The translations under genes and the position numbers were made by a program. Source: Myxococcota bacterium (GTDB taxonomy: Bacteria > Myxococcota > XYA12-FULL-58-9 > JALHOP01). From it: a stretch of DNA of 24,068 nucleotides. Under the pieces are notes generated by a model. It did not search any database and was not told the origin of the DNA. It saw only the letters and a program-made list of their open reading frames with translations. Where the stretch lies: the NCBI GenBank assembly GCA_041288095.1, contig JBGGMJ010000122.1, positions 1 to 24,068 on the forward strand, given 5' to 3'. Of the stretch, positions 812 through 15,459 are shown piece by piece (positions within the stretch are counted from its first letter, which is position 1; each line of letters opens with the position of its first letter).

Positions 812-1470
812 TGTTGCGTCGCGTAGGTCTCGCCCTCGTCCTCTGTGCGTCCGCCTGTACCAAGCCCGCCCCACCGGTGGCCGGCCGCTACGATGCCGCC
901 GGAACGGACGTGCAGGCGGAGGACTACCCACACGTGCTCGCGAGCTGGACGCGTGACAATCGGCTCTACAACGGGCTCGAGAATAAAGTCTTCGTCACCT
1001 CCGTCTTTTTGACTCCAGAGCTACGCGCCGCCGTGCGTACCGCTTACCCGGACGTCGTCGGCCATGGCGGAGCAGTGACGCGCGATGAGCTCGCCACTGG
1101 TCCCGGGAACGACCTGGTGTTCTTCGTCACCATGTACACGGCGGACCGCAAGTGGAACGACCTGCAGGCGCCGACGTCGATCTGGAAAGTGACCCTGAAG
1201 GGCGCTTCGGAAGTCGCGCCGACGTCAATCGTCCGCGTCCGCCCGGACGAGAACATGCGCACCGTGTTTCCTTTCATAGGGCGCTACGACGAGACCTACG
1301 TCTTGCGCTTTGCCCAGGGCGACGGCGCCGTCATCGGCTCGGGCACCAACGAAGCGACCCTGCGTTTGGCAAGCGGGCTCGGCGAAACCAGCCTCACATG
1401 GCAGCTCGCGCGTGGCACGCAACCGGTACCGAAGACCGGCGAGCCACCGATGGCTCCAGCGGTGCGTTGA
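811..1470 (+). CDS. Putative lipoprotein of unknown function (219 aa)
   Basis: ATG at 811 overlaps the pyrE stop (TGATG). Signal MLRRVGLALVLCASA-C with lipobox-like Cys16. The ORF-track start at 574 lies inside pyrE and is rejected. Confidence 0.82.
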   Translation: MLRRVGLALVLCASACTKPAPPVAGRYDAAGTDVQAEDYPHVLASWTRDNRLYNGLENKVFVTSVFLTPELRAAVRTAYPDVVGHGGAVTRDELATGPGNDLVFFVTMYTADRKWNDLQAPTSIWKVTLKGASEVAPTSIVRVRPDENMRTVFPFIGRYDETYVLRFAQGDGAVIGSGTNEATLRLASGLGETSLTWQLARGTQPVPKTGEPPMAPAVR

Positions 1471-3830
1471 TGAGACAGCGCGGGGCGGTGCTCATTGCGC
1501 TCGTCACCGCCTGCGGCGTCGACCTGCCGTTGCGCGACGACGTTACTTACACCTGCCGCACGAGCGCCGATTGTCCGCTCGAGCTGTCTTGCGCGGTTGC
1601 CATCCAGAGTTGTGTCGCCGACCTCGACACGATTGCACCACGACTCACGAGCATCACGACGTCGAACCGCCAGACGGTCATTCTCGTCTTCGACGAAGCG
1701 GTCGACCACGACCTCGCGGCACTGCCATCGACCTTCATCATCGTCCGCGATGATGGACAGCCGCTCGAGGTCCTCGCGGCGGCGCCGCTCGAGGACGGCA
1801 AGAGCATCGTTCTGCGCACCGGCACGCAACGGGGCGCGGCGGTCTATACGCTCGAGACCTCGATTACCGACGCCCAGGGGAACCTCGCGACCCTCGACCA
1901 AGAAACGTTCACCGGCTTTGGCAGCGCGCCGGACTCGACGCCGCCGCAAACCATCGCGCCCGTCGACGCGAGTGTCATCGTGGTACCGCCGCCCGATCGC
2001 GACGACCTCACCGTCATCCTCGCCTGGACGCCCCGGTCTGGCGCCATCAACTACACCGTCGAGGTGTCGAGCAAGGCGACGTTCGATCCGATCGACATGA
2101 CGATCGAGGTCCGCGGAGATGAGTCGTCGCAGGTGTTACGCGTCGTCGAAGGCACGACCTACTTCTGGCGTGTGCGCTCCGATGCCACCGTCCCGGGTGA
2201 GTTCGGGAGCGCTTCCTTCACCATCCTATTCGATACCGTCTACGTTTATTGTCCGGTGGGCACGGCCTGCAGGGCGGGCGACGGAGTCGGGAGCAAAAAT
2301 GTGCCGCTCGCGAGTGTGGCCCGGGCGATTACGCTAGCGACGGATCGTGCCTTGCCGACCATCGCGGTCGCGGCGCGCGGCAATGATGCGGGTGGCAACG
2401 TAGCGACCTACGACGAGCCGATCTCCATCACCGGCGCGGGCCGAACCATCGTCGGCGGCTACGACGGCAGCTTCGCGGGTCCACCCAATCGGGCCATCAA
2501 CCGCGCGCGCATCGCGTACGAGCTCGGCGTCCTCACCGTCACGCAGAACACGGGTGTCATCACCATCGACAAGCTCGAGCTCGAGGCGACACTCACGAAC
2601 GAGGTCGCGCCACCGACGCAGGAGCTCGTCACCGCGACGATGTCGGAGCTGGGCGCCGACGTCGTCTTCAGGGATTGCCTCATCACCACCGCCGACACCA
2701 ACGATGGAGGCACACCGGAAACGACCTTGCCCGCGGCGACGCTGGCGCTCGCGGCCGTGAATATCGGGACGGCAGCCGTCCGCCTCGATGCCGCGACGAC
2801 GGTGACCGCCGGCCGCGCGTTTCGCAGCACCACGGCCGCGCTGAGCTTGAACGGCCACCTGGTCGTCGAAGGCAGCCACCTGACGGCCCGGCGCGTGTTC
2901 GACTCCAACGCGGGCGCTAGCTCGGTAGGGCTCGCCGCCGTGGGCGGCATCGTCGAGGTCGTCGATGCGCTGATCGAGGCGGGGAACTTCGTGCCGACCA
3001 TCGGCTTCCCGTCCGGCGCCGTCAACGTGCTGAACACCGCCGGCGCGATTCGCCGCTCGACGATCGTTAGTGGCGATGGTGGCGCGCGCGGCAATGGCGT
3101 CGTCGTGCTCGGGTTGACCAACGACCTGCTGGAGCTCACGGGCAACACCGTCGTCGTGACCTCGGCGATCGAGAATGGGACCGGCATCATCTGGCAGGAG
3201 ATGGCGTCGACCCTCGCGAACAACGTCGTCGTCGTCGACAGCCCAACGAGCGCGCGCGGCATCCACGTGGTGGGCCTCGAGATTCACCGCGTCGTCAACA
3301 ACACCATCGTCGTCTCCGGCGCCGGCGACAGCACCGGCTTTTACGTGAGCACGGGCGCCCCGGACCTCGCAAACAACTTGGTCGTCTGCTCTAGCGGCGC
3401 CGGGGCGAGCAGCGGCGTCACCGAGAGCCTCCAGCAGTCCGATCCGCGCGCGCTCATCAACAACGTCTTCATCGGTTGCGACACGGCGTACCAGCAGGAC
3501 GACGGTGCCCTGGTCGCCGACGCCAACGGCGTCGACGGCGAGCTGATGGACTGCGGAGGCTGCACGCAGGTCCGCTCGAGCGGCAACGTGTCGATGGCAA
3601 GCTTCGACCCCTTCGTGTCGGCCGGTGGCGCCGACGGCAATCTCGATACTCCCGACGGCGACTTCACGCTCGCAACGACCGACGTCGCCATCACCGAGGG
3701 TGGAGTCGACACGGCATCGACGAGCTGCGGCAACACCGGCCAGCTCCACGATTGCGGCGCGCTGACCGTCGACTTCGCCGGCCGCGCGCGTACCCTCCCC
3801 ACCTCGATCGGCGCCCATGAGAAGGACTGA
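1470..3830 (+). CDS. Large multidomain lipoprotein A (Cys-rich motif, Ig-like, FN3-like, parallel beta-helix, C-terminal cap), 786 aa
   Basis: ATG at 1470 overlaps the upstream stop (TGATG). Signal MRQRGAVLIALVTA-C; C-x5-C-x5-C-x6-C motif; DTIAPRL...VILVFDEAV (Ig-like); LAWTP...YTVEVS...TYFWRVRS (FN3-like); Asn ladders (GNTVVV, ANNVVVV, VNNTIVV, ANNLVV, INNVF); terminal DFAGRAR...SIGAHE. Domain names assigned by eye. Confidence 0.8.
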   Translation: MRQRGAVLIALVTACGVDLPLRDDVTYTCRTSADCPLELSCAVAIQSCVADLDTIAPRLTSITTSNRQTVILVFDEAVDHDLAALPSTFIIVRDDGQPLEVLAAAPLEDGKSIVLRTGTQRGAAVYTLETSITDAQGNLATLDQETFTGFGSAPDSTPPQTIAPVDASVIVVPPPDRDDLTVILAWTPRSGAINYTVEVSSKATFDPIDMTIEVRGDESSQVLRVVEGTTYFWRVRSDATVPGEFGSASFTILFDTVYVYCPVGTACRAGDGVGSKNVPLASVARAITLATDRALPTIAVAARGNDAGGNVATYDEPISITGAGRTIVGGYDGSFAGPPNRAINRARIAYELGVLTVTQNTGVITIDKLELEATLTNEVAPPTQELVTATMSELGADVVFRDCLITTADTNDGGTPETTLPAATLALAAVNIGTAAVRLDAATTVTAGRAFRSTTAALSLNGHLVVEGSHLTARRVFDSNAGASSVGLAAVGGIVEVVDALIEAGNFVPTIGFPSGAVNVLNTAGAIRRSTIVSGDGGARGNGVVVLGLTNDLLELTGNTVVVTSAIENGTGIIWQEMASTLANNVVVVDSPTSARGIHVVGLEIHRVVNNTIVVSGAGDSTGFYVSTGAPDLANNLVVCSSGAGASSGVTESLQQSDPRALINNVFIGCDTAYQQDDGALVADANGVDGELMDCGGCTQVRSSGNVSMASFDPFVSAGGADGNLDTPDGDFTLATTDVAITEGGVDTASTSCGNTGQLHDCGALTVDFAGRARTLPTSIGAHEKD

Positions 3831-3831
3831 C

Positions 3832-6180
3832 ATGAAGCGCTTGCTGCCCTTGCTGCTGCTCACGGGCTGCGGCGTCGACCTCGAGGTACCCGAGGGCCTC
3901 GAAGTTACCTGCGCAACGGACGCCGAGTGCCAGGACGGTAAGGTCTGCGCGCTCCTCATCGGTCGTTGCGTCGACAGCGTGGATTCCGTCGCCCCACGCA
4001 TCGTCGCCGCCGACCCGCCCACGCCCGATCGCGTTCGTGTCGTTTATAGCGAACCGGTCGCTTGCACACAGGCCACGAGCAGTGCCACCTACGTCATCTC
4101 GCCGCCACTAGCGGCCAGCTTGGTGAACGGCAGCGGCTGCAAGGATAGCGACTCCTTCACCACCGAAGCCGTCCTTTTCACCGACCTCCAAGCGCCGCTC
4201 GTCGATTACACGCTGACGGCAATCGGCATCGTCGACAGCGGCGGTAATCTCCTCGCCGCCGACGGCAGCTCCACGACCTTCAAGGGGTTCGGTGCAGCGC
4301 CGGATCCGTCGCCGCCACTGGCGCTCGTCCCGCTCGACGCGAGCCGCGTCCTCGGGCGGCAGCAGAGCCTCGTCTGGACCGCGCGTCCCGGTGTCGACAC
4401 GTACATCGTCGAGGTGGCGACGGACGCCGGCTTCGCGACCCCGATCTCCGGTAGCCCGTTCGTGGTCGAGGAGGCGACCCTCAATCTGACCGGGCTCGAG
4501 GACGTGACCTACTTCTGGCGCGTGCGCTCGAACCTTACCGCCGTCGGCACCGTGCTTGCCGTACAGAGCTTCGACGTCTTGGTGGACACGGTCTACGTCG
4601 CTTGCGCGAGCGAGCCATGCGAGGGTGGCGTCCGCAATGGCAGCCGCACCCGCCCATATGCGGGGCTACAGCGCGCCCTCGCCGCGGCCGCCGAGCTCTC
4701 CACGTCCATCGACGTGCCAACGCCGACCATCAAGATCGCGGCGCGGGGCCCGAGCACGCCTTACGTCGGCGCGGTGATTTTGCAGTGGCAATCGGTACGC
4801 GTCGAGGGCGGGTGGGACGCGACGTTCACGAGCAGAAGCACTGACCCGACACAGACCGTCCTCGAAGCACCAGGCTCGGTCATGCTGGTGAGCAACCTGC
4901 CTGGAGCGGTGAGCGCGTCCATCGAGCGGCTCACCTTGCGGACGCCCAGCGACATCGACGCGAACACGCTTACCGTGACCGCGGCGAGCAGCAGCCTCTT
5001 GTTCAGAGAGGTGATCGTCGAGGGTCGTTCGAACGGTCTCAGCCACGCCCTCAGTATCAGCGGTGGGCCGGCCGCCGGACCGCGGTTCCAGAGCTGTGTC
5101 TTCACGATGGCGCCCGCCGACACCAGCAGCGTGCAATTGGCGGTCATAAGGAACGCCGCGCCGTCTTTCGACAGTTGCACCTTCGCGTTTGCCCCAGGCA
5201 GCGCTCAGGACGCCGTCGCGGTCGAAGTGCAGGGGCCGCTGCCCGGCAATCTTGTCTTCGACGGCTGCGACATCGCGAGCGGCGCGGGCGCCAATCTCGA
5301 CGGTCATTCCTATGGTGTGCAAGTGAGCATGGTGGGTGCGTCGGCCGGCCGCGTCGAGCTCGTGCGATCGACGGTGACCAGCAACACCGCGGACGTGAGC
5401 GGCGCCGTCTACCTCCAGCAACAAGCGCGCATCATGGTCGATTCCTCGGTGCTCGCGGCGAGCGACGCCGTCGCGGCGAGCGAAGCCCTGACCCAGAGCA
5501 TCCTCCTGGATGCTCCCGAAATAGTCGTCCGCAATAGCGTTCTGTCGGCGGGTGAGGCCACGAACGCCTATGCGCTACGCGCCGCGAACAGCCCAAGCCT
5601 CACGGTGACCAACTCTTTGCTCCTGACGCGCGCCACGTCGGCAGGCGCCGCCGACGCGATGACGCTGTACAACATCCATCCCATCCTCACGAACAACATC
5701 TTCGCCACGGCGGACATCAACCAGCCATGCGTCGGCATGCAGCTACTGGACAGCGACGTGCTGCCCATCGCCATGCTCAACAACGTCTTCCTCCACTGCA
5801 ACGGCTACAGAACCGGCACGTACACGGCAACAACGACCGCCGGCATCAACGCTCTCGATGGCGTAGAGATCACCGACGACGGTTGCCTAGAGCCTGCGTG
5901 TCCCAACGCGCGGTTCGCGGGCAACGTGGTGATGGCCGACACCTTCGACAACGTCTTCGTCGATTGGGACGGAGACGACGACGACCCGGCCACGATAGCG
6001 GACAACGACTATCACCTACTCGCCGGCGCCGACGCTCAGATCACCGAAGGCGGCCTGGACAGCAGCGCCAACAGCTGCGCGCCGCAAGGCGAGAGCGCGC
6101 CGTGCAACGTGCCACTCACCGACATCGACGGCCAAGCGAGGGACGTCCCCTACTCGATCGGACCCGACGAAGTACCCTAG
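3832..6180 (+). CDS. Large multidomain lipoprotein B, paralog of the preceding gene, 782 aa
   Basis: GAAGGA SD-like sequence before ATG 3832. Signal MKRLLPLLLLTG-C; same Cys spacing, TYFWRVRS, DTVYV, AARG, ITEGG and terminal DIDGQAR...SIGPDE. Confidence 0.82.
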   Translation: MKRLLPLLLLTGCGVDLEVPEGLEVTCATDAECQDGKVCALLIGRCVDSVDSVAPRIVAADPPTPDRVRVVYSEPVACTQATSSATYVISPPLAASLVNGSGCKDSDSFTTEAVLFTDLQAPLVDYTLTAIGIVDSGGNLLAADGSSTTFKGFGAAPDPSPPLALVPLDASRVLGRQQSLVWTARPGVDTYIVEVATDAGFATPISGSPFVVEEATLNLTGLEDVTYFWRVRSNLTAVGTVLAVQSFDVLVDTVYVACASEPCEGGVRNGSRTRPYAGLQRALAAAAELSTSIDVPTPTIKIAARGPSTPYVGAVILQWQSVRVEGGWDATFTSRSTDPTQTVLEAPGSVMLVSNLPGAVSASIERLTLRTPSDIDANTLTVTAASSSLLFREVIVEGRSNGLSHALSISGGPAAGPRFQSCVFTMAPADTSSVQLAVIRNAAPSFDSCTFAFAPGSAQDAVAVEVQGPLPGNLVFDGCDIASGAGANLDGHSYGVQVSMVGASAGRVELVRSTVTSNTADVSGAVYLQQQARIMVDSSVLAASDAVAASEALTQSILLDAPEIVVRNSVLSAGEATNAYALRAANSPSLTVTNSLLLTRATSAGAADAMTLYNIHPILTNNIFATADINQPCVGMQLLDSDVLPIAMLNNVFLHCNGYRTGTYTATTTAGINALDGVEITDDGCLEPACPNARFAGNVVMADTFDNVFVDWDGDDDDPATIADNDYHLLAGADAQITEGGLDSSANSCAPQGESAPCNVPLTDIDGQARDVPYSIGPDEVP

Positions 6181-7022: not shown

Positions 7023-8125
7023 GACGTTTTCGGCTCGGATTCGCCAGCATCGCGACGCTGACGATCGCGGTGCCGGCGTGGGCACAAATCGAGACGGCCG
7101 AAGACGCCGCGCGAGCGACCAACGCCAAAGTGGTCGATCTCGTTGCCAGCGACAATCGTACGTGCGCGCGACTGCGCGACGGTACCTGGACCTGCTGGGG
7201 CGAGGCCTTGCTCGGCGATGCCGGCGCCGTCGCCAGCTATCCGCGGGAGCTTCGCTACCTGGTGCCGAAGGCGTCGGGGTGCGGCGTCGCCCAGGCAGGG
7301 GACGTCGTCTGCTGGGGCAGCTGGGGCGACGGCACATCACGGCCAACGCGCATCGACGCTCAGCGCGGCGCGCGCGTCATCGGGCTCGCCGACGATCGCT
7401 TGTGCATCGGCACCAGCGACAACCACGTATTTTGCCGTCGCCGGAAGAGTGCGTGGCAACCGCTACCCTACGACGACGTCGTGCGCTTGGGCGTCGCGGA
7501 CAACCGCGTGGGCCTCGTGCGCCATGGTCACCAGCTGACGCTGGTTCAATATGCCCGCGATAGCGACGTGAGCAAAGCGCGCGACATCGGCCTCCCGGCG
7601 CGCACGATCGTTTTCGGCGCGGACACGAGCTACGTGGTCACACGCGACTATCGCGGCGTCGCCATCCCGGACGGTGGCGAGCCACAAGGACTGCCCGGAC
7701 TTCCGAACGCCGTGCACATCGGCGCTGATCCCTCGGCGCGCCACGTCTGCGCCACCGACAAAGGGGGGACAGTTCGCTGCAGCGGACAAAACCAGGCGGG
7801 GCAGCTCGGCACCGGCGACACCGCGAACCGGGCGTCATTCGAGCTGGTCCCTGGTATCGCGGGCGCTCAGCGCGTGGCCGTCGGCGCGTTCCACACGTGT
7901 GCCCTCACCACGACCGGCGAGGTCTTCTGCTGGGGCGCGAACGACGCGGGTCAACTCGGCGTGAAGCTCGCCGAGCCCGAGCCCGCCGCTCCGAAGGGCC
8001 GTCAGAAGGGCTCGTTCACGCGCGCCAACGTCGGCGAGAGCCCGCGAGCGAGTCTCTGCACGATCGCCAAGAAGACCGCGCCGGTGCAGTGCGCGCTGTC
8101 GCCTGTTCAGGTCGCCGTGCCCTGA
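7019..8125 (+). CDS. RCC1/BLIP-II-like Cys-rich beta-propeller repeat protein, probably secreted
   Basis: Repeats such as HTCALTTTGEVFCWGANDAGQLG, HVCATDKGGTVRCSGQNQAGQLG, RTCARLRDGTWTCWG. First canonical start is GTG 7070, but an in-frame signal peptide extends back to CTG 7019. Confidence 0.8.
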   Translation: MRRFRLGFASIATLTIAVPAWAQIETAEDAARATNAKVVDLVASDNRTCARLRDGTWTCWGEALLGDAGAVASYPRELRYLVPKASGCGVAQAGDVVCWGSWGDGTSRPTRIDAQRGARVIGLADDRLCIGTSDNHVFCRRRKSAWQPLPYDDVVRLGVADNRVGLVRHGHQLTLVQYARDSDVSKARDIGLPARTIVFGADTSYVVTRDYRGVAIPDGGEPQGLPGLPNAVHIGADPSARHVCATDKGGTVRCSGQNQAGQLGTGDTANRASFELVPGIAGAQRVAVGAFHTCALTTTGEVFCWGANDAGQLGVKLAEPEPAAPKGRQKGSFTRANVGESPRASLCTIAKKTAPVQCALSPVQVAVP

Positions 8126-8152: not shown

Positions 8153-9793
8153 TCAGCCGACGCGCCGCCGCAGGTGCACGTTGAGGACGATGCCAATCGC
8201 CGCGAGCTTCGCAATGAGACTCGAGCCGCCGTACGAGAAGAACGGCAACGTCAAGCCAACCACCGGCAGCACCCCGATGACCATGCCGACGTTGACGATG
8301 GCTTCCCAGAACAAGCCCGCCCCCAGCCCGGCCGCGAGTAGCGCTCCATAAGGCTCACGCGCATCGGCCGCGACGCTGAAGATGATGACGAGGAGCGCCG
8401 CGTACATGGCGAGCAGCAGGGCACAGCCGACGAAGCCCTGCTCTTCCGCCCATACGCTGAAGGCGAAGTCGGTGTGCTGCTCGGGCAGGAACGATAGCTG
8501 CGTTTGCGTCCCTTCCATGTGACCCTTGCCGACCCAACGACCCGAGCCGACCGCGATCATGGACTGCACGGCGTTCCAACCAGCGCCCTGAATGTCGTTC
8601 TGGGGGTCGATGAACGTCATGATGCGTCGCTTCTGGTAGTCCTTGAGGACACCGAACCAGCTGACGCCTGCGACCGCCGTGCCGAGGAGGCCCAACAATA
8701 CGATCGTCCGCAATCGCACACCAACGACGAGCACCATGGTAAGGCCGGTGCAGAAGATGACGATGGCGTTGTCGAGGTCCGGTTGCATGGCGACGAGCGC
8801 CGCCGGCACCGCCATGATGTCGATGGGCGCGATCAAGATGTCCGTGAGAGAGCCACTCTGCCGTCTTCGGACAGCGAGCAACGAGCCCGTGAGGTACGTA
8901 GCCCCGAGGCCGACGAGACCGATGCGCAACCACCAGCTCGCGGCGAGCTCGGCATGGCTGCCGCCCGGCGTGCCCGCTTCGTTGAGGGCGTTGATGAGGA
9001 ACGCAATCGGATCGCGCACGAGCGGCGCGTTCCACGACAGCCCGAGCCACACCGCGAGCGCGACCGTCATGAGACCGATGAGAATCAAGATGCGCCGCCG
9101 GCGTGTGCGCGGCCAGGGGTTGAGCAGGGCTTGGCTGCGCTCGATGCGGACGACGACCGCGATCGCGATGGCGGCGATAATGACGACCCCGAGGGCCAGC
9201 ACCACGCGGAACCACATGAGATCCGCGGGCTCCACGCGGGCGGTGCCCATGCGCCGGTGGACCAAGCGCGCGAGCTCGCCGATAGGGTCCGCTAAAACAG
9301 GCTTGTTCCAGAACGCGGCAATGCCGGCGAGCACCGCGAGCGGCCGCGACGGATTCAAGGGGCGTAGCAACGACAACAACGTGTAGCCGTCCGGCACGAC
9401 GCGCGTGCTCAGGTAACGCGACATGCCGAAGACGATGGCGAGCTTTGCGAACTCGCTCGGTTGGAACTGGAACGGCCCCAGCATCAGCCAGCGTTGCGCG
9501 CCCTTCGCGTGATGGCCGTGCATGATGACGCCGACCAAGAGCAGGCAGAAGACGCCGTATACCGCATAGGCCACGCTCTCGCTGACGCGATAGTCAGGAA
9601 TGAGCAAGAGCAAGGCGAAGGCGATGCCGAGGCCCATGAACTTGAGCTGTTGGAGATAGAGGCCGGGTGATTCCGCCGCGGCCGCCGAATGCAAGTTGTA
9701 AACGCCGAGTAACGACACCAGGATGACCGCGCCGGCGAGCGGCCAATTGAAGCCGGAGAGGGTTACTCCGCCGCGGCGGACACTCGGGCTCAC
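8153..9793 (-). CDS. rodA: Rod shape-determining protein RodA (SEDS glycosyltransferase), atypically long (546 aa)
   Basis: GAQRW, FQPSEFAK, QPDL, YQKRRI..F.DP, QSMIAVGSG, LPEQHTDF, EEQGFVG, LPFFSYGGSS motifs. GTG at 9793 overlaps the mrdA stop (GTGA). Confidence 0.93.
   Translation of the reverse strand: MSPSVRRGGVTLSGFNWPLAGAVILVSLLGVYNLHSAAAAESPGLYLQQLKFMGLGIAFALLLLIPDYRVSESVAYAVYGVFCLLLVGVIMHGHHAKGAQRWLMLGPFQFQPSEFAKLAIVFGMSRYLSTRVVPDGYTLLSLLRPLNPSRPLAVLAGIAAFWNKPVLADPIGELARLVHRRMGTARVEPADLMWFRVVLALGVVIIAAIAIAVVVRIERSQALLNPWPRTRRRRILILIGLMTVALAVWLGLSWNAPLVRDPIAFLINALNEAGTPGGSHAELAASWWLRIGLVGLGATYLTGSLLAVRRRQSGSLTDILIAPIDIMAVPAALVAMQPDLDNAIVIFCTGLTMVLVVGVRLRTIVLLGLLGTAVAGVSWFGVLKDYQKRRIMTFIDPQNDIQGAGWNAVQSMIAVGSGRWVGKGHMEGTQTQLSFLPEQHTDFAFSVWAEEQGFVGCALLLAMYAALLVIIFSVAADAREPYGALLAAGLGAGLFWEAIVNVGMVIGVLPVVGLTLPFFSYGGSSLIAKLAAIGIVLNVHLRRRVG
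8825..9358 (-). repeat. In-frame ~178-aa insertion in RodA made of two diverged ~92-aa repeat units
   Basis: LNP..TM..WNKPVLADPI...WFR..TM versus LNP..TM..WNAPLVRDPI...WLR..TM. The two WN codons (9310, 9034) are 276 nt apart. Confidence 0.75.
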
Positions 9794-11859
9794 TCGTGCG
9801 CCTCGGTCGTCGCTGCCGCGGTCGCCCTCTTGGGCGCTGGTGGCGGTACCCACGGCACCGGGTTGCCCGACGTGAGACTCATGTCGCGCAACGCGCGCTT
9901 CTCGGCCAACCGGTAGAAGGTATCGATGACCTCGGTCACCACGGGCTCGGCGGTGACGCCGCCGTGACCCGAGTGCTCGTTGAGCACCGCCACGACGATC
10001 TCCGGCTTTTCGGCGGGAGCCCAACCGACGAACCAGCCGTGGTCGCGATGGAAGTAATCCATCTGCTCCATCTTCAAGCGCACCGCCCCGATGCGCACGA
10101 CCTGCGCGGTGCCGCTCTTGCCGGCCATCGTCACCTTCTGTGAGCGGTTGCGATAGCCGGTGCCACCCGGCTCGGCGACGGCGATCAGGCCCTCGCGGAT
10201 GGGCGCCAGATAGTCTTTCGGTAGCTCCACCTTGGAGCGCACGACGCTTACGAGCTCGCGCATGAGCGAGGGCGCGTCACCCTGAACGTCTTCGCGGATG
10301 GCTCCGTAGGCCTGCAGGGTACGGCGCTTCACGCGCAGGTCCGCCGACTCGATGCGCTCGACCATGCGCGGCCCATAGACGGTGCCGTCGTTCGCTATAG
10401 CGGCATAGGCATAGGCGAGCTGCAGCGGCGTGACGAGCACCGAGCCCTGACCGATGGCGGCGTTGATCGCCATACCCTTCTGGTAGCCGCCGGAGGCCTT
10501 GTCGGCGCGGTTGTGATACGCCTCGTCGGGAATGAGGCCCGAGCGCTCGCCGCGGAGCGCGATGCCGCTGACACTACCGAGGCCGAGCATGCGCGACGCC
10601 TTGGCGATGGGCTCGAGGCCCATGCGGCCCGCCATCGTATAGAAGTAGGTATCGCACGACACCTGCAGGGCACGCTTCAAGTCCACCGACCCGTGCGTGC
10701 CGTGGCAGCGCCACGTGTAGTGGCCCATGCGGTACTGGCCAGGGCAGTGCACGTGCTCGCTCGGTGTCGCCGTGTTGCTCATCAGCGCGGCGAGAGCGGT
10801 CGCGACCTTGAAGGTCGACCCCGGCACGAACTGGCCCTGGATAGGACGGTTCAACCACGGGCGCAGAGGGTCCTTGTCGAGCGCGGCTTTCTCGCTGGCC
10901 CCGAGCGCGCCACTCGCGGCATTGGGATCGAACTCCGGCGCGGACACCATCGTCAGCACGCTGCCGGTGTTCGGATCGATGGCGACGACGCTACCGGCGA
11001 CACCTTGCTTCTTGAAGGCGGCCTCGGCGGCGAGTTGCAAATCGAGGTCGACCGACAAGTAGACGTTTTTGCCTGGCTTGGGCTCGAAGCGGCGCTGGTC
11101 GCCGAGCAACGACGTCACGAACGCGTCATGCTGGCGGCGTCCCTTGGCGTCGACGACGACTTGCTCGTAGCCATCGGCGCCACGCAGATCTTCCTCGAAG
11201 GCGCGCTCGATGCCTTCGCGGCCAACCAAGTCGCCGAGCTCGTAACCCATCGGGTTGTTCTTGGCACGCTCGGCCTCGAGCGACATCGGGTCGATCTCGT
11301 TGACGTAGCCGAGCATGTGCGCGGCGAGTGCGCCATAGCGGTAAGCGCGTCGGCGGCCTTCCATGATGTCGACACCGTCGAGCAGGAACACGGCACGGTC
11401 GGCTTCGACGGCTTCGATCTCGCTCGGGCTCAAGTCGCGCTTCACCAGCACGGCCTGGAACTTGTTGAGTCCGCTCTTACGGAGCACCTGAGCGGCGACC
11501 TTGTCGATGTCTTCTTGCGTGAGTCCGAGAATGGACTGAAGACGCGACAACGTAGCCTTGGCGTTGGGACCGCGGCCCAAGAACGCCGGCGTGATCTGCA
11601 GGTCGAGCGACGGCCGGTTGTCGACGAGGATGCGTCCGTGGCGGTCGAAGATGATGCCGCGGTCGTGGGGAATGCGGACGTGCTGCACGAAGTTGCGCTG
11701 GCCCTGGGACGAGAGCTCGTCGCCGCGCACGATCTGCAAGGTGTAAAGGCGAACGAGCATCGCCACGAACACGATGATGACGATGGCCATGGCAAGGCCC
11801 AAGCGCGCCCCGAAGGCGCGGACCGGATTGCGACCCGTGGATTCGGCGGTAAGGGCCAT
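9790..11859 (-). CDS. mrdA: Penicillin-binding protein 2 (class B PBP, elongation transpeptidase)
   Basis: N-terminal TM anchor, RGIIFDRHG, RAYRYG, GREGIE, SxxK (GSTFK), SxD (SCD), KSG (AGKSGTAQV), DHGWFVG; adjacent to rodA. Confidence 0.96.
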   Translation of the reverse strand: MALTAESTGRNPVRAFGARLGLAMAIVIIVFVAMLVRLYTLQIVRGDELSSQGQRNFVQHVRIPHDRGIIFDRHGRILVDNRPSLDLQITPAFLGRGPNAKATLSRLQSILGLTQEDIDKVAAQVLRKSGLNKFQAVLVKRDLSPSEIEAVEADRAVFLLDGVDIMEGRRRAYRYGALAAHMLGYVNEIDPMSLEAERAKNNPMGYELGDLVGREGIERAFEEDLRGADGYEQVVVDAKGRRQHDAFVTSLLGDQRRFEPKPGKNVYLSVDLDLQLAAEAAFKKQGVAGSVVAIDPNTGSVLTMVSAPEFDPNAASGALGASEKAALDKDPLRPWLNRPIQGQFVPGSTFKVATALAALMSNTATPSEHVHCPGQYRMGHYTWRCHGTHGSVDLKRALQVSCDTYFYTMAGRMGLEPIAKASRMLGLGSVSGIALRGERSGLIPDEAYHNRADKASGGYQKGMAINAAIGQGSVLVTPLQLAYAYAAIANDGTVYGPRMVERIESADLRVKRRTLQAYGAIREDVQGDAPSLMRELVSVVRSKVELPKDYLAPIREGLIAVAEPGGTGYRNRSQKVTMAGKSGTAQVVRIGAVRLKMEQMDYFHRDHGWFVGWAPAEKPEIVVAVLNEHSGHGGVTAEPVVTEVIDTFYRLAEKRALRDMSLTSGNPVPWVPPPAPKRATAAATTEAHE

Positions 11860-11958
11860 GGCTCCGATTTCCCAGCTATCACAGCCGACTAGGCATGACG
11901 ACCACCCGCTTCATGGTCGCGTACTTTTTGTTCCGTGGAAGTTCGGTGAACCCTTGCC

Positions 11959-12840
11959 ATGGAGCAGTCGATAACCCCGGCCATGCAGGTCAGCGGTATC
12001 CCCTCCGGCACCCCCGCGCGAACGACAGCTCCGCTCACGCTTCCAGTGAGCGAATGGCTGAAGGTCTCCCGCTTCCATCCACTCGGACAAGCCGAGACGC
12101 TGCGCCTCGTGCTGCAGCTCACCAGGCAGGCGATGGATGCCTACCGCCGTGGTGAGGGCCCGCGCCCGGTCGTGGTCTTCGACCTCGACGACACCTTGTT
12201 CGTGAGCCATCAGCCGCGGACCCACCGCATCTTGCGCGAGTGGCTTGCCGCGCGGCCCGCGCTCGATACCGGCATCGCGCGGGCGCTCGCCGCGGTGAAC
12301 GAACGCGACATCCCCTACGGCGGCGTGAAGCCGACGTTTCAGAAGGCGGCGCGCCTCGAGCTCGGGGATCCGAAAGTCGCGGCGGCGCTGGTCGATTTCG
12401 AGACTTTCTGGAAAGCGCGCTTCTTGTCCAACGCCTACGTCATTCACGACCCACGGCAACCGGGGGGCGTCGATTACGCGCGGGCCATTTTCGCGATGGG
12501 CGCCGGCATCGCCTATCTCAGCGGACGCGACGCTCCCAATATGGGGGAAGGCACGCGCATAGCTATCCGCAATAGTGGACTTCCGGAGCCGTCGGATCGC
12601 GTGCAGCTCTACCTGAAGCCGCGAGCCGACATGGACGACGCGGAGTTCAAACGTAGCGTGCGCGCGGCCATCGCGGCGTCGGGCAAGGTCGTCGCGACTT
12701 TCGACAACGCTCCAGCGAACGTGGTCGTGCTCTCGAAGTCGTTTCCGGACGCCGCGCACGTTTTCGTGGACACCATTTACGACAGTGCGCCGGTGGAGGT
12801 TCGCGACGGCCTCTATCGCGTCAAAGGCTTCACCATCTAG
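11959..12840 (+). CDS. HAD-superfamily hydrolase (acid-phosphatase-like)
   Basis: Motif I VVVFDLDDTLF, motif II YLSGR, candidate motif III Lys (AEFK), motif IV variant TFDN. Start could also be ATG 11983. Confidence 0.85.
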   Translation: MEQSITPAMQVSGIPSGTPARTTAPLTLPVSEWLKVSRFHPLGQAETLRLVLQLTRQAMDAYRRGEGPRPVVVFDLDDTLFVSHQPRTHRILREWLAARPALDTGIARALAAVNERDIPYGGVKPTFQKAARLELGDPKVAAALVDFETFWKARFLSNAYVIHDPRQPGGVDYARAIFAMGAGIAYLSGRDAPNMGEGTRIAIRNSGLPEPSDRVQLYLKPRADMDDAEFKRSVRAAIAASGKVVATFDNAPANVVVLSKSFPDAAHVFVDTIYDSAPVEVRDGLYRVKGFTI

Positions 12841-13349
12841 CGCCAGGAGAGCGAGGCGCGGGTATCTGGAGCCAGACGGCGTTCGATCTTGTCGAGCAAC
12901 GGCGTCACGAGGACACCGACGAATGCGGTGAGCAAGGCTGCGGGCACCAGGATGGCGGTCGAGAAGCTCGCGAACCCCACGCTGCCGCGTAGGCCATAGA
13001 GCAGCGCGAAGAGCAGCGCGTGGTACGCGGCTGTCGCCGCCGCGGTCACCAAAGCGGCGAACACCGGGCCGCTAGCCGCAATCGAGCCAGCCAAGAGCTG
13101 CGTGCCCAGCGCGATGACCCCCAGCGCCAACGGATGCAGGCCAGTAGGGCCCAACTCTTGGCGGCCGACGAGATAGCCGAGCGCCAGCGCAATCATCACG
13201 ACCTGCAGCGCTTCGCGACGCAGGGCCAGGTACACGATGACGATGATGACGGGGTCGGGCATCACGTAACCGAAGCCACCGTGAGCCTCGAGAGCGGTGA
13301 TGAACGACGTCCCTATCCACGCGACCACGATCCACACGAGCGCGCTCAA
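12837..13349 (-). CDS. mreD: Rod shape-determining protein MreD (divergent, 170 aa)
   Basis: Highly hydrophobic multi-TM protein with PDPVIIVIVYLAL resembling the MreD PD-l motif. TTG at 13349 overlaps the mreC stop (TTGA) with GAGGTG upstream. Directly follows mreC. Confidence 0.8.
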   Translation of the reverse strand: MSALVWIVVAWIGTSFITALEAHGGFGYVMPDPVIIVIVYLALRREALQVVMIALALGYLVGRQELGPTGLHPLALGVIALGTQLLAGSIAASGPVFAALVTAAATAAYHALLFALLYGLRGSVGFASFSTAILVPAALLTAFVGVLVTPLLDKIERRLAPDTRASLSWR

Positions 13350-14314
13350 GGCGTCACCTCGCGCACCGGCTCGGCGAGCTCCACCGCGTTGGGCGCAAAG
13401 AGACCCTCGCCGCGCAGCAAGACGTCGGGTGAAATGGGCCCTATGTCGGCTTCCGGTGTCTCGAACGTGGTTCCGGGAGCCCAGCGGCCGATGACCACGA
13501 GCACGTCCTCGAGCTTGCCGACATCCACCGCCGGCTCGATGGTGGCGTTCTGATAGAGCCCGAAAGCGCGCGTCTCCGTCGCCAAGACCTTGCCGACGCG
13601 CAGGCCCTTGGGGAAGACCTCGCCGACGCCACTGGTAACCAAGACGTCGCCGGGCTGCACGTCGGCGGTGCGCGACAGGTACTCGACCTGGATACCGAGC
13701 TGGCGATCGCCGCCGAAGCCACGCACCCGGGCACGGGCGCGCGTGCGCTGCACGAGGACGTCGGTCGAGCTGTTGGCGTCGACGAGCAACATCACATCCG
13801 ACCACTGCATGGTCACGGCGGCGACGCGACCAACGACACCGTCGGCGTTCACCACGGCGGAGCCCACGGTCACGCCGTCGTTGCTGCCACGATCGATGCG
13901 CACGGAGCGAAAGAGCGGCGTCGACGCCATGGCGATGATTTGCGCGTGCACCATGGGCACTCCGCTCGCGCGGTGTCGCACCGACATCAGTGACTTCAAA
14001 CGCTCGTTCTCGAGCCGCATCTCTTCATCGCGCGCGAGCTGTCCGCGTAAGCGGCCAAGCTCCTCCGCCATCACCAAGTTCTGCTCGGCGGTGTCGATGA
14101 GATAGACGTAGCGGTTCCAGACGTTGATGACGCCCTCGACGGTGCCGCGAACGATCCACTGGAACGGCGCCGAGACCGTGACCACGACCTTGTCGAAGAT
14201 GTTGTGGTCGCGCGCTTCCTTCGCGTTCGAGACGTAAAAGACGAACGGCAGCGCGAGCAGCGTCAGGACGATCAGCGGGTCGCGGTAGCGACGTAGAAAT
14301 TCCGACGAGGCCAT
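13346..14314 (-). CDS. mreC: Rod shape-determining protein MreC
   Basis: N-terminal TM, coiled coil (EMRLENERLKSLM), IDRGSNDGV, GVVGRV, GDVLVTSGVGEVFPKGLRVG. Confidence 0.95.
   Translation of the reverse strand: MASSEFLRRYRDPLIVLTLLALPFVFYVSNAKEARDHNIFDKVVVTVSAPFQWIVRGTVEGVINVWNRYVYLIDTAEQNLVMAEELGRLRGQLARDEEMRLENERLKSLMSVRHRASGVPMVHAQIIAMASTPLFRSVRIDRGSNDGVTVGSAVVNADGVVGRVAAVTMQWSDVMLLVDANSSTDVLVQRTRARARVRGFGGDRQLGIQVEYLSRTADVQPGDVLVTSGVGEVFPKGLRVGKVLATETRAFGLYQNATIEPAVDVGKLEDVLVVIGRWAPGTTFETPEADIGPISPDVLLRGEGLFAPNAVELAEPVREVTP

Positions 14315-14403: not shown

Positions 14404-15459
<1,056 letters not shown>

Follow-up and report, generated by a model that had tools for sequence, protein, structure and literature searches.

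The DNA stretch under study (hereafter, the window) comprises 24,068 nucleotides of contig JBGGMJ010000122.1, assigned to a Myxococcota bacterium (GenBank assembly GCA_041288095.1), and contains on its minus strand the genes mreB, mreC, mreD, pbp2 and rodA, in this order. The rodA gene starts with a GTG codon at position 9793, finishes with a stop codon at positions 8153-8155 and encodes a RodA protein of the SEDS family in which 190 residues, predicted to form four additional membrane helices arranged as two repeated units, stand in place of about 10 residues of the loop between transmembrane (TM) helices 4 and 5. The length of 546 amino acids given for this protein in a preliminary description, made from the sequence alone, was borne out by the open reading frame (ORF). 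The analysis with family profiles revealed scores above the cut-offs for PF01098 (300.7 bits, cut-off 26.4) and for the rodA equivalog model TIGR02210 (366.3 bits, cut-off 336.7), and the FtsW and SpoVE NCBIfam models scored under their cut-offs for the same protein; therefore, it was classified as the elongasome RodA and not as a stray SEDS paralogue. Genes for a class B penicillin-binding protein (PBP) and for MreBCD are found beside rodA, and the same gene order is kept at the related loci L001-L007 and L009. Judged from these profiles and this context, the gene product is the elongasome peptidoglycan glycosyltransferase RodA with a complete and intact SEDS core, its activity being predicted.

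The closest known protein is the SEDS RodA (MrdB), CAZy family GT119, with the structures 8TJ3 from Escherichia coli and 6BAR and 6PL5 from Thermus thermophilus. A phmmer search against the PDB sequences aligned E. coli RodA (8tj3_B) to the protein in two blocks, residues 24-135 with residues 25-135 of the query and residues 146-364 with residues 326-544. T. thermophilus RodA was split at the same place, and the PF01098 and TIGR02210 profiles also matched the protein in two stretches. Between the aligned blocks there are 10 residues in E. coli RodA (136-145) versus 190 in the window protein (136-325), and therefore the insert corresponds to residues 136-325, with a net gain of about 180 amino acids. 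The preliminary description had placed about 178 extra residues at positions 8825-9358 (residues 146-323), in the normally short loop between TM4 and TM5; this segment lies inside the insert, its translation is as quoted, and the two-block alignment with E. coli RodA locates it in that loop. The coordinates of the different elements are compiled in the table.

Features of the rodA gene, its insert and the neighboring elongasome genes in the window
Feature	Positions	Strand	Residues or size	Basis and remarks
rodA coding sequence	8153..9793	minus	546 amino acids plus stop	PF01098, TIGR02210
RodA core, N-terminal part	9389..9793	minus	1-135	Alignment to E. coli RodA 24-135; TM1-TM4, including the QPSE/K117 helix
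Insert	8819..9388	minus	136-325	Alignment to E. coli RodA; stands in for about 10 residues of the cytoplasmic loop between TM4 and TM5
Entry motif RPLNPSRP	9341..9364	minus	144-151	Best conserved piece of the insert, common to the 111-residue forms
Repeat unit 1	9131..9379	minus	139-221	hhalign, DSSP of the model, conservation, hydropathy
Short helix h1 (unit 1)		minus	151-162	
Periplasmic loop 1 (unit 1), predicted		minus	163-193	
Helix h2 (unit 1)		minus	194-215	
Arg-rich linker between units	9092..9148	minus	216-234	Predicted cytoplasmic; excess of K+R
Repeat unit 2	8864..9130	minus	222-310	hhalign, model, conservation, hydropathy
Helix h3 (unit 2)		minus	235-253	
Periplasmic loop 2 (unit 2), predicted		minus	254-287	
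Helix h4 (unit 2)		minus	288-307	
RodA core, C-terminal part	8156..8818	minus	326-546	Alignment to E. coli RodA 146-364; TM5-TM10, QPD (D339) and HTDF (D442)
pbp2 (mrdA), class B PBP	9790..11859	minus	689 amino acids	PF00905, PF03717; immediately upstream of rodA, which it overlaps
mreD	12837..13349	minus	170 amino acids	PF04093, 23.1 bits, just below the cut-off of 24; TTG start overlapping the mreC stop as TTGA
mreC	13346..14314	minus		PF04085, E 1.4e-41
mreB	14404..15450	minus		PF06723, E 5.7e-152

The residues of the core that are relevant for catalysis were also located by alignment. E114, K117, D339 (QPD motif) and D442 (HTDF motif) align with E114, K117, D159 and D262 of E. coli RodA (8tj3_B). 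In an alignment of 112 relatives, which omits the cluster of the window protein itself (P0003), the 501-residue protein P0062 and the short or partial proteins P0016, P0110-P0114 and P0122, K117, D339 and D442 are the same in every sequence and E114 nearly so. The catalytic motif is intact, as had been stated earlier. Modeling with AlphaFold2 on this 112-row alignment gave a mean predicted local distance difference test (pLDDT) value of 89.4 and a predicted template modeling (pTM) score of 0.85, with the helices of the N-terminal core part at residues 17-37, 45-62, 70-92 and 112-130. When the model was compared with the PDB by using Foldseek, the seven matches with E<=1e-3 were all RodA or FtsW, with target-normalized TM-scores of 0.76-0.84 (6pl5_A, E 6.3e-14, TM-score 0.82).

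Two units of similar construction were recognized in the insert, as claimed in the preliminary description. A comparison with hhalign of residues 138-221 against 222-325, performed with 13 sequences, yielded a probability of 96.5 and an E value of 7.3e-10; with 108 sequences, unit 1 against unit 2 gave a probability of 97.9 and an E value of 4.8e-13 over 67 columns, and in this alignment each helix of one unit is matched with a helix of the other, as are their W-x6-D-P motifs. In the controls, the best E value was 0.029 in 14 core-window comparisons, 0.0064 in 30 column shuffles and 0.012 in 20 more core windows taken from the deep alignment. An origin of the units as copies of RodA's own helices was also considered and rejected, the best E value in 34 comparisons of units with the core being 0.012. 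Thus, since the control values are far weaker, the units are homologous to one another, with no detectable relationship to the core helices of RodA. These profile comparisons indicate that a single unit was duplicated in tandem to give the module; in order, each copy has a membrane helix, a Trp followed by six residues, an interfacial helix capped by Asp-Pro, a loop, a (W/L)xR motif and a second membrane helix. This duplication must be old, because no repeat at the DNA level remains across the insert or its borders.

The four hydrophobic segments previously noticed in the insert, the first of them short (12 residues), are present, and AlphaFold2 places the corresponding four added helices, of membrane length or close to it, at residues 149-160 (h1), 193-221 (h2), 229-252 (h3) and 287-310 (h4, 24 residues), with mean pLDDT values of 91-98 for the blocks of the insert. 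Two interfacial helices are predicted at residues 170-182 and 262-274, and short helices flank the insert at residues 139-143, before h1, and 316-320, before TM5 (323-336). The same helices were obtained when the insert was folded alone (pLDDT 82.3). The family-mean hydropathy of h1-h4 was 2.04, 2.10, 2.23 and 1.71, respectively, and that of the ten core helices ranged from 0.63 to 2.38. For a path with four crossings, the mean net charge in 108 members was +2.9, +4.1 and +0.5 in the successive cytoplasmic loops and -0.8 and -1.3 in the periplasmic ones, the Arg-rich linker having a mean of 5.5 K+R versus 1.4 D+E. These loop charges fit the two new periplasmic loops and the Arg-rich linker proposed in the preliminary description. 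From helices, hydropathy and charge, an in-out-in-out-in path is predicted that adds four crossings, leaves the topology of the core unchanged and results in a RodA with 14 TM helices; the predicted additions are, on the periplasmic side, two caps each formed by a helix and a loop and, in the cytoplasm, one Arg-rich linker.

In a different topology with 12 TM helices, h2 and h3 would be the sole crossings of the insert, the cytoplasm would contain h1, h4 and the two conserved loops, and the Arg-rich linker would lie in the periplasm; the topology of the core would be kept here too, because the number of crossings is even as well. A Kyte-Doolittle analysis with a window of 19 residues and a threshold of 1.6 detected only h2 (3.35) and h3 (2.47) in the insert, and h1 has just 12 residues. 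However, TM4 and TM10, which are genuine core helices, also escape detection at this threshold, the mean hydropathy of h1 and h4 is at the level of the core TM helices, and the model shows h4 as a helix of 24 residues. The path restricted to h2 and h3 is further disfavored because the linker, with its charge of +4.1, would then lie outside and the net negative loops inside, which is the reverse of the positive-inside rule. We therefore consider this 12-helix topology very unlikely.

To our knowledge, every solved SEDS member has ten membrane helices. The model of the window protein keeps these ten core helices and adds four, so that the predicted count of 14 is an architectural departure in which no core element is lost. 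With its insert, the protein is a new architectural variant of the well-known RodA, the fold of the core being already known. The protein resembles the solved RodA proteins in its family profiles above the cut-offs, the ten-helix fold of the core (TM-score 0.79-0.84), the key residues and the neighboring pbp2 and mreBCD genes, and differs from them in having 190 instead of 10 residues between TM4 and TM5, with four extra predicted helices and two predicted periplasmic caps. Ten TM helices are given for SEDS proteins in the literature (PMC10920833, PMC10449877). More than ten TM segments have also been predicted for the RodA of Corynebacterium glutamicum, which was described as having 12 TM domains by TMHMM (PMC4285798); this prediction was made in 2015, when no SEDS structure had yet been solved, and the likeness concerns the predicted number of segments. 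The "14 transmembrane helices" mentioned in PMC7614612 correspond to the whole FtsWIQBL complex.

Searches for a known domain or fold in the insert gave negative results. No Pfam or NCBIfam family matched it below an E value of 0.1, and when 13 family members were scanned singly no family common to their inserts was found. A profile search of the PDB with the insert produced no significant match, the best one being claudin-3 (E 0.014; claudin-3 and claudin-4, 0.014-0.19); homology to these claudins was rejected, and the similarity was read as a matter of the composition of four-helix membrane proteins. Foldseek with the model of the insert retrieved 0 matches at E<=1e-3 (best, 0.71), and in the ESM Atlas the best score was 0.79, which is the chance level. 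Together with the core-window comparisons, these profile, PDB and Foldseek searches show that the insert matches neither ordinary RodA columns nor a known domain, which upholds the earlier interpretation. A phmmer search with the insert against 1.84 billion representative proteins gave seven matches, six of which carry PF01098. The seventh, P0021 (960 amino acids), was discarded as a carrier of the module, since only the hydrophobic h2 stretch was matched and its Pfam matches are unrelated. In this search, the module was therefore seen only inside SEDS proteins.

The distribution of the insert was analyzed at the level of both proteins and genomes. When only the insert was scored, a search retrieved 13 clusters, all of 538-548 amino acids, all with PF01098 and with 37-100% identity in the insert. 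The search with the whole protein gave 608 matches at E<=1e-20; among the 120 matches listed, 108 have 530-549 amino acids, one has 501, seven have 308-412 (including three labelled partial) and four have 442-470. The number of residues at the insert site is 170-199 in 108 of the 112 aligned relatives, 111 in three and 79 in one. The family thus comprises more than 100 sequence clusters among the matches listed, which appear in databases under ordinary RodA or FtsW names. At the genomic level, scanning a single genome of each species with the entry motif RPLNPSRP as pattern yielded 13 loci, nine with the long insert (L001-L009, L005 and L008 being cut by contig ends) and four with a 111-residue insert (L010-L013). 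All 13 belong to metagenome-assembled genomes (MAGs) labelled Myxococcota, Myxococcales, Deltaproteobacteria or "uncultured Bdellovibrionales", and the RodA with the long insert is widespread in one uncultured lineage. One protein with the long insert, P0007, is 80% identical to that of the window and comes from a MAG labelled "Clostridia bacterium" at NCBI, unlike all other labels; this is probably an error of binning or labelling.

This distribution also bears on a possible artefactual or selfish origin of the insert, for instance through misassembly, as a frameshifted fusion, or as an intein or the remnant of an insertion sequence. The same architecture is found in nine genome assemblies that are independent of one another and, among the matches listed, in over 100 protein clusters, the insert is in frame and under purifying selection, no Pfam or NCBIfam family, including those of inteins, matches it, and there is neither a DNA repeat at its borders nor a change in G+C content, which is uniform throughout the window (62-69%). 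An artefactual or selfish origin is effectively refuted by these data.

No description of a SEDS protein with an insert of this kind was found in the literature on RodA and SEDS proteins, Myxococcota and extra TM segments, in which few subscription papers were covered. This agrees with the earlier statement that no such protein was known to have been described; the family was already present in databases, unremarked. As a whole, the earlier observation is confirmed and its structural interpretation is supported, the 14-helix topology being predicted.

Two shorter forms of the insert were found at the same site of RodA proteins from other MAGs labelled Myxococcota, one of 111 residues (L010-L013 and P0123-P0125) and a hairpin of 79 residues (P0126-P0129); a search with the 79-residue form retrieved just these four clusters. 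Both share with the long form the insertion point, an entry of the RPLNPSRP type (RPFNLSR in the 79-residue form) and an IAPxD exit. They have two extra hydrophobic helices, in contrast to the four of the long form, and the loop between these helices is short in the 79-residue form, which is a plain hairpin, whereas the 111-residue form has a charged segment of about 50 residues. In the latter, the entry and the first helix resemble unit 1 and h1 (hhalign E 1.2e-12, first 25 columns), and the last helix and the exit resemble unit 2 and h4 (E 4.2e-5, last 43 columns). A tree of 119 sequences constructed with the core only separates the 108 long forms from the 7 and 4 shorter ones with a support of 1.0, and each shorter class forms a clade; this tree contains no insert-free outgroup and thus carries no order from 79 to 111 to 190 residues. 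In Myxococcota, membrane helices seem to have been gained repeatedly in the TM4-TM5 loop.

Conservation within the insert is concentrated in a limited number of positions. About 24 of them are near-invariant across the 108 members, which share about 38% identity in the insert: Y137, L142, P145, N147, R150 and P151 at the entry (P145 and R150 being invariant in the 112 sequences); W162, D169, P170, G172, A175, R176 and R196 at the periplasmic end of unit 1; W254, D261, P262, L270, G278, R290 and Y300 at the periplasmic end of unit 2 (R290 and Y300 in h4); and A322, P323 and D325 at the exit. The conserved residues are located at the ends of the loops and not within the helices, the sequence varies freely within h2 and h3, and the lengths of the units and of h1 are fixed across the family. 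The variable membrane helices suggest that they face lipids and that function or structure is concentrated at the membrane faces. The ratio of nonsynonymous to synonymous substitutions (dN/dS) was 0.054-0.148 in the insert versus 0.019-0.063 in the core in all six pairs formed by the window and the three closest loci. From these substitution patterns, the insert is translated and constrained, more loosely than the core.

These data are relevant to a neutral explanation, according to which a permissive loop accepted a hairpin of two TM helices, which was duplicated afterwards and is either neutral or kept because its removal would now destabilize folding. That the loop is permissive is shown by the inserts of three sizes (79, 111 and about 190 residues) that occupy this one site in related groups. 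The insert also evolves 2-3 times faster than the core, and the middle part of the 111-residue form is not detectably related to the loops of the repeat. However, dN/dS values of 0.05-0.15 indicate strong constraint, about 24 positions stay near-invariant although the inserts share only about 38% identity, and the lengths of the units and of h1 are fixed, so that we regard this explanation as unlikely.

The possible role of the module can be considered in relation to the known structure of SEDS enzymes. According to PMC10449877, the acceptor cavity (cavity B) lies between TM2, TM3, TM4 and TM10, TM5 and TM6 together with their loop frame the donor cavity (cavity A), the pyrophosphate of lipid II is coordinated by arginines on the periplasmic side, and TM3-7 constitute a flexible bundle that must move against TM1-2 and TM8-10 for transfer of the chain out of the acceptor and into the donor site. 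A cavity for lipid tails between TM7 and TM5 is described in PMC7614612. The module of the window protein would belong to the mobile TM3-7 bundle because it is tethered to TM4 and TM5, and would hang between a helix of the acceptor cavity (TM4) and one of the donor cavity (TM5). It may thus constitute a built-in accessory "outrigger" that extends the periplasmic rim beside the substrate cavities; this is proposed because W162, D169-P170, G172, A175, R176, R196, W254, D261-P262 and R290 cluster at the periplasmic face of the membrane. The invariant arginines R176, R196 and R290 are candidates for holding the pyrophosphate of lipid II or of undecaprenyl pyrophosphate (Und-PP), the mass of the module may damp or bias the movement of TM3-7, and catalysis would stay with the ordinary RodA core. 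With moderate confidence, we favor an accessory module on the TM3-7 bundle that probably acts at the periplasmic membrane face, with a putative position near the cavities and a putative role in substrate handling or regulation; the regulatory or scaffolding role suggested in the preliminary description is likewise putative.

Several points weigh against this proposal. The mean pairwise identity is 0.38 in the insert versus 0.63 in the core, which also fits a looser, purely structural role, and the conserved Asp-Pro/Arg pairs could be mere helix caps and salt bridges that make no contact with the substrate. The helix h1, invariably of 12 residues, is short for a full membrane crossing. Similarity between the middle segment of the 111-residue form and the W-x6-DP loops of the repeat was not detected by hhalign, and therefore a loop function conserved across all insert forms is unsupported. 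In addition, no experiment on any family member was found.

Extra helices that modulate the activity of the ten-helix SEDS core are also known in the form of separate partners. A helix of PBP2, located on TM8/9, stimulates RodA (PMC10449877), the TM helix of FtsL contacts TM1 of FtsW in the divisome (PMC7614612) and RagB binds RodA of Bacillus subtilis (PMC12457691). These partners (the anchor helix of PBP2/FtsI, FtsL/FtsB and RagB) are separate polypeptides, on TM8/9 or TM1 of the SEDS protein, whereas the helices of the insert belong to the RodA chain itself and are tethered to TM4 and TM5. By analogy with the binding of the FtsL helix to TM1 of FtsW, the module could be a platform encoded in cis for docking MreD, the anchor of MreC, RodZ, a hydrolase or a class A PBP at or in the membrane. 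The control of SEDS enzymes by membrane partners (the PBP2 helix, FtsL and RagB), the purifying selection on the module and the conserved residues of surface type at its periplasmic face speak for such a platform. Nevertheless, h2 and h3 are poorly conserved, which is unusual for a specific helix-helix interface, no visibly co-occurring partner gene was found at the related loci beyond the ordinary mre and mrd genes, and current models of the canonical Rod complex keep RodA-PBP2 and MreC-MreD apart within the membrane, according to PMC12625996. A complex prediction of RodA with MreD, using the full RodA alignment together with an MreD alignment, gave a score of 0.00 (mark, 0.32) and was counted neither way. 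Docking of a partner is considered rather unlikely, and the accessory module on the TM3-7 bundle is preferred.

In a more far-reaching reading, which we put forward as speculative and improbable, the module would be a regulatory subunit encoded in cis and fused to the TM3-7 bundle that gates the entry of lipid II or the release of Und-PP, or that sets the balance between open and closed RodA, in replacement of separate activators, and the forms of 79, 111 and 190 residues would record its stepwise construction. If this were true, the protein would be a self-regulating SEDS polymerase with 14 TM helices in a single polypeptide.

The SEDS polymerases of the cell wall are essential and are targets for antibiotics. 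The movement of TM3-7, the entry of lipid II and the exit of Und-PP in these enzymes are still under study, and the module would represent a natural perturbation on exactly that bundle. The shorter natural intermediates in sister lineages allow comparisons with and without the module, in order to know which face of RodA tolerates additions and how access of substrates may be tuned from the TM4-TM5 side. With regard to annotation, more than 100 entries among the matches listed, plainly named RodA or FtsW, hide the architecture of the insert.

With respect to the other elements of the cluster, four-base overlaps of start and stop codons were observed at positions 9790-9793 (GTGA, the GTG start of rodA with the stop codon of pbp2) and 13346-13349 (TTGA, mreC/mreD), which suggests translational coupling along the operon. 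Homologues of mreD are present in eight loci. The frame of mreD remains open for 152 codons further upstream (12837-13805, minus strand), overlapping mreC in another frame, and this overlapping frame is also open in L001-L004 with about 75% identity; most likely, it is a by-product of the high G+C content and of the conservation of mreC, and not an extended MreD. The gap between mreD and pbp2 is about 0.98 kb in the window (11860-12836), and in L001 mreD ends 31 bases before pbp2. This gap contains an ORF of 293 amino acids (11959..12840, plus strand) with a DxDxT-like stretch and a weak, sub-threshold match to the haloacid dehalogenase (HAD) hydrolases (PF00702, E 0.0059, 17.5 bits versus a cut-off of 26.4); a counterpart was not found by tblastn in the 13 loci.

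On the other side of rodA, two adjacent large ORFs on the plus strand (1152-3830 and 3817-6180), of 892 and 787 amino acids, have no Pfam match and show 46-51% identity to sequences in L001 and L002. A protein of 351 amino acids with RCC1 repeats is encoded between a thioredoxin gene and the end of rodA (7070-8125, plus strand); it is essentially absent at the related loci, with a 45-residue match in L002 as the sole exception.

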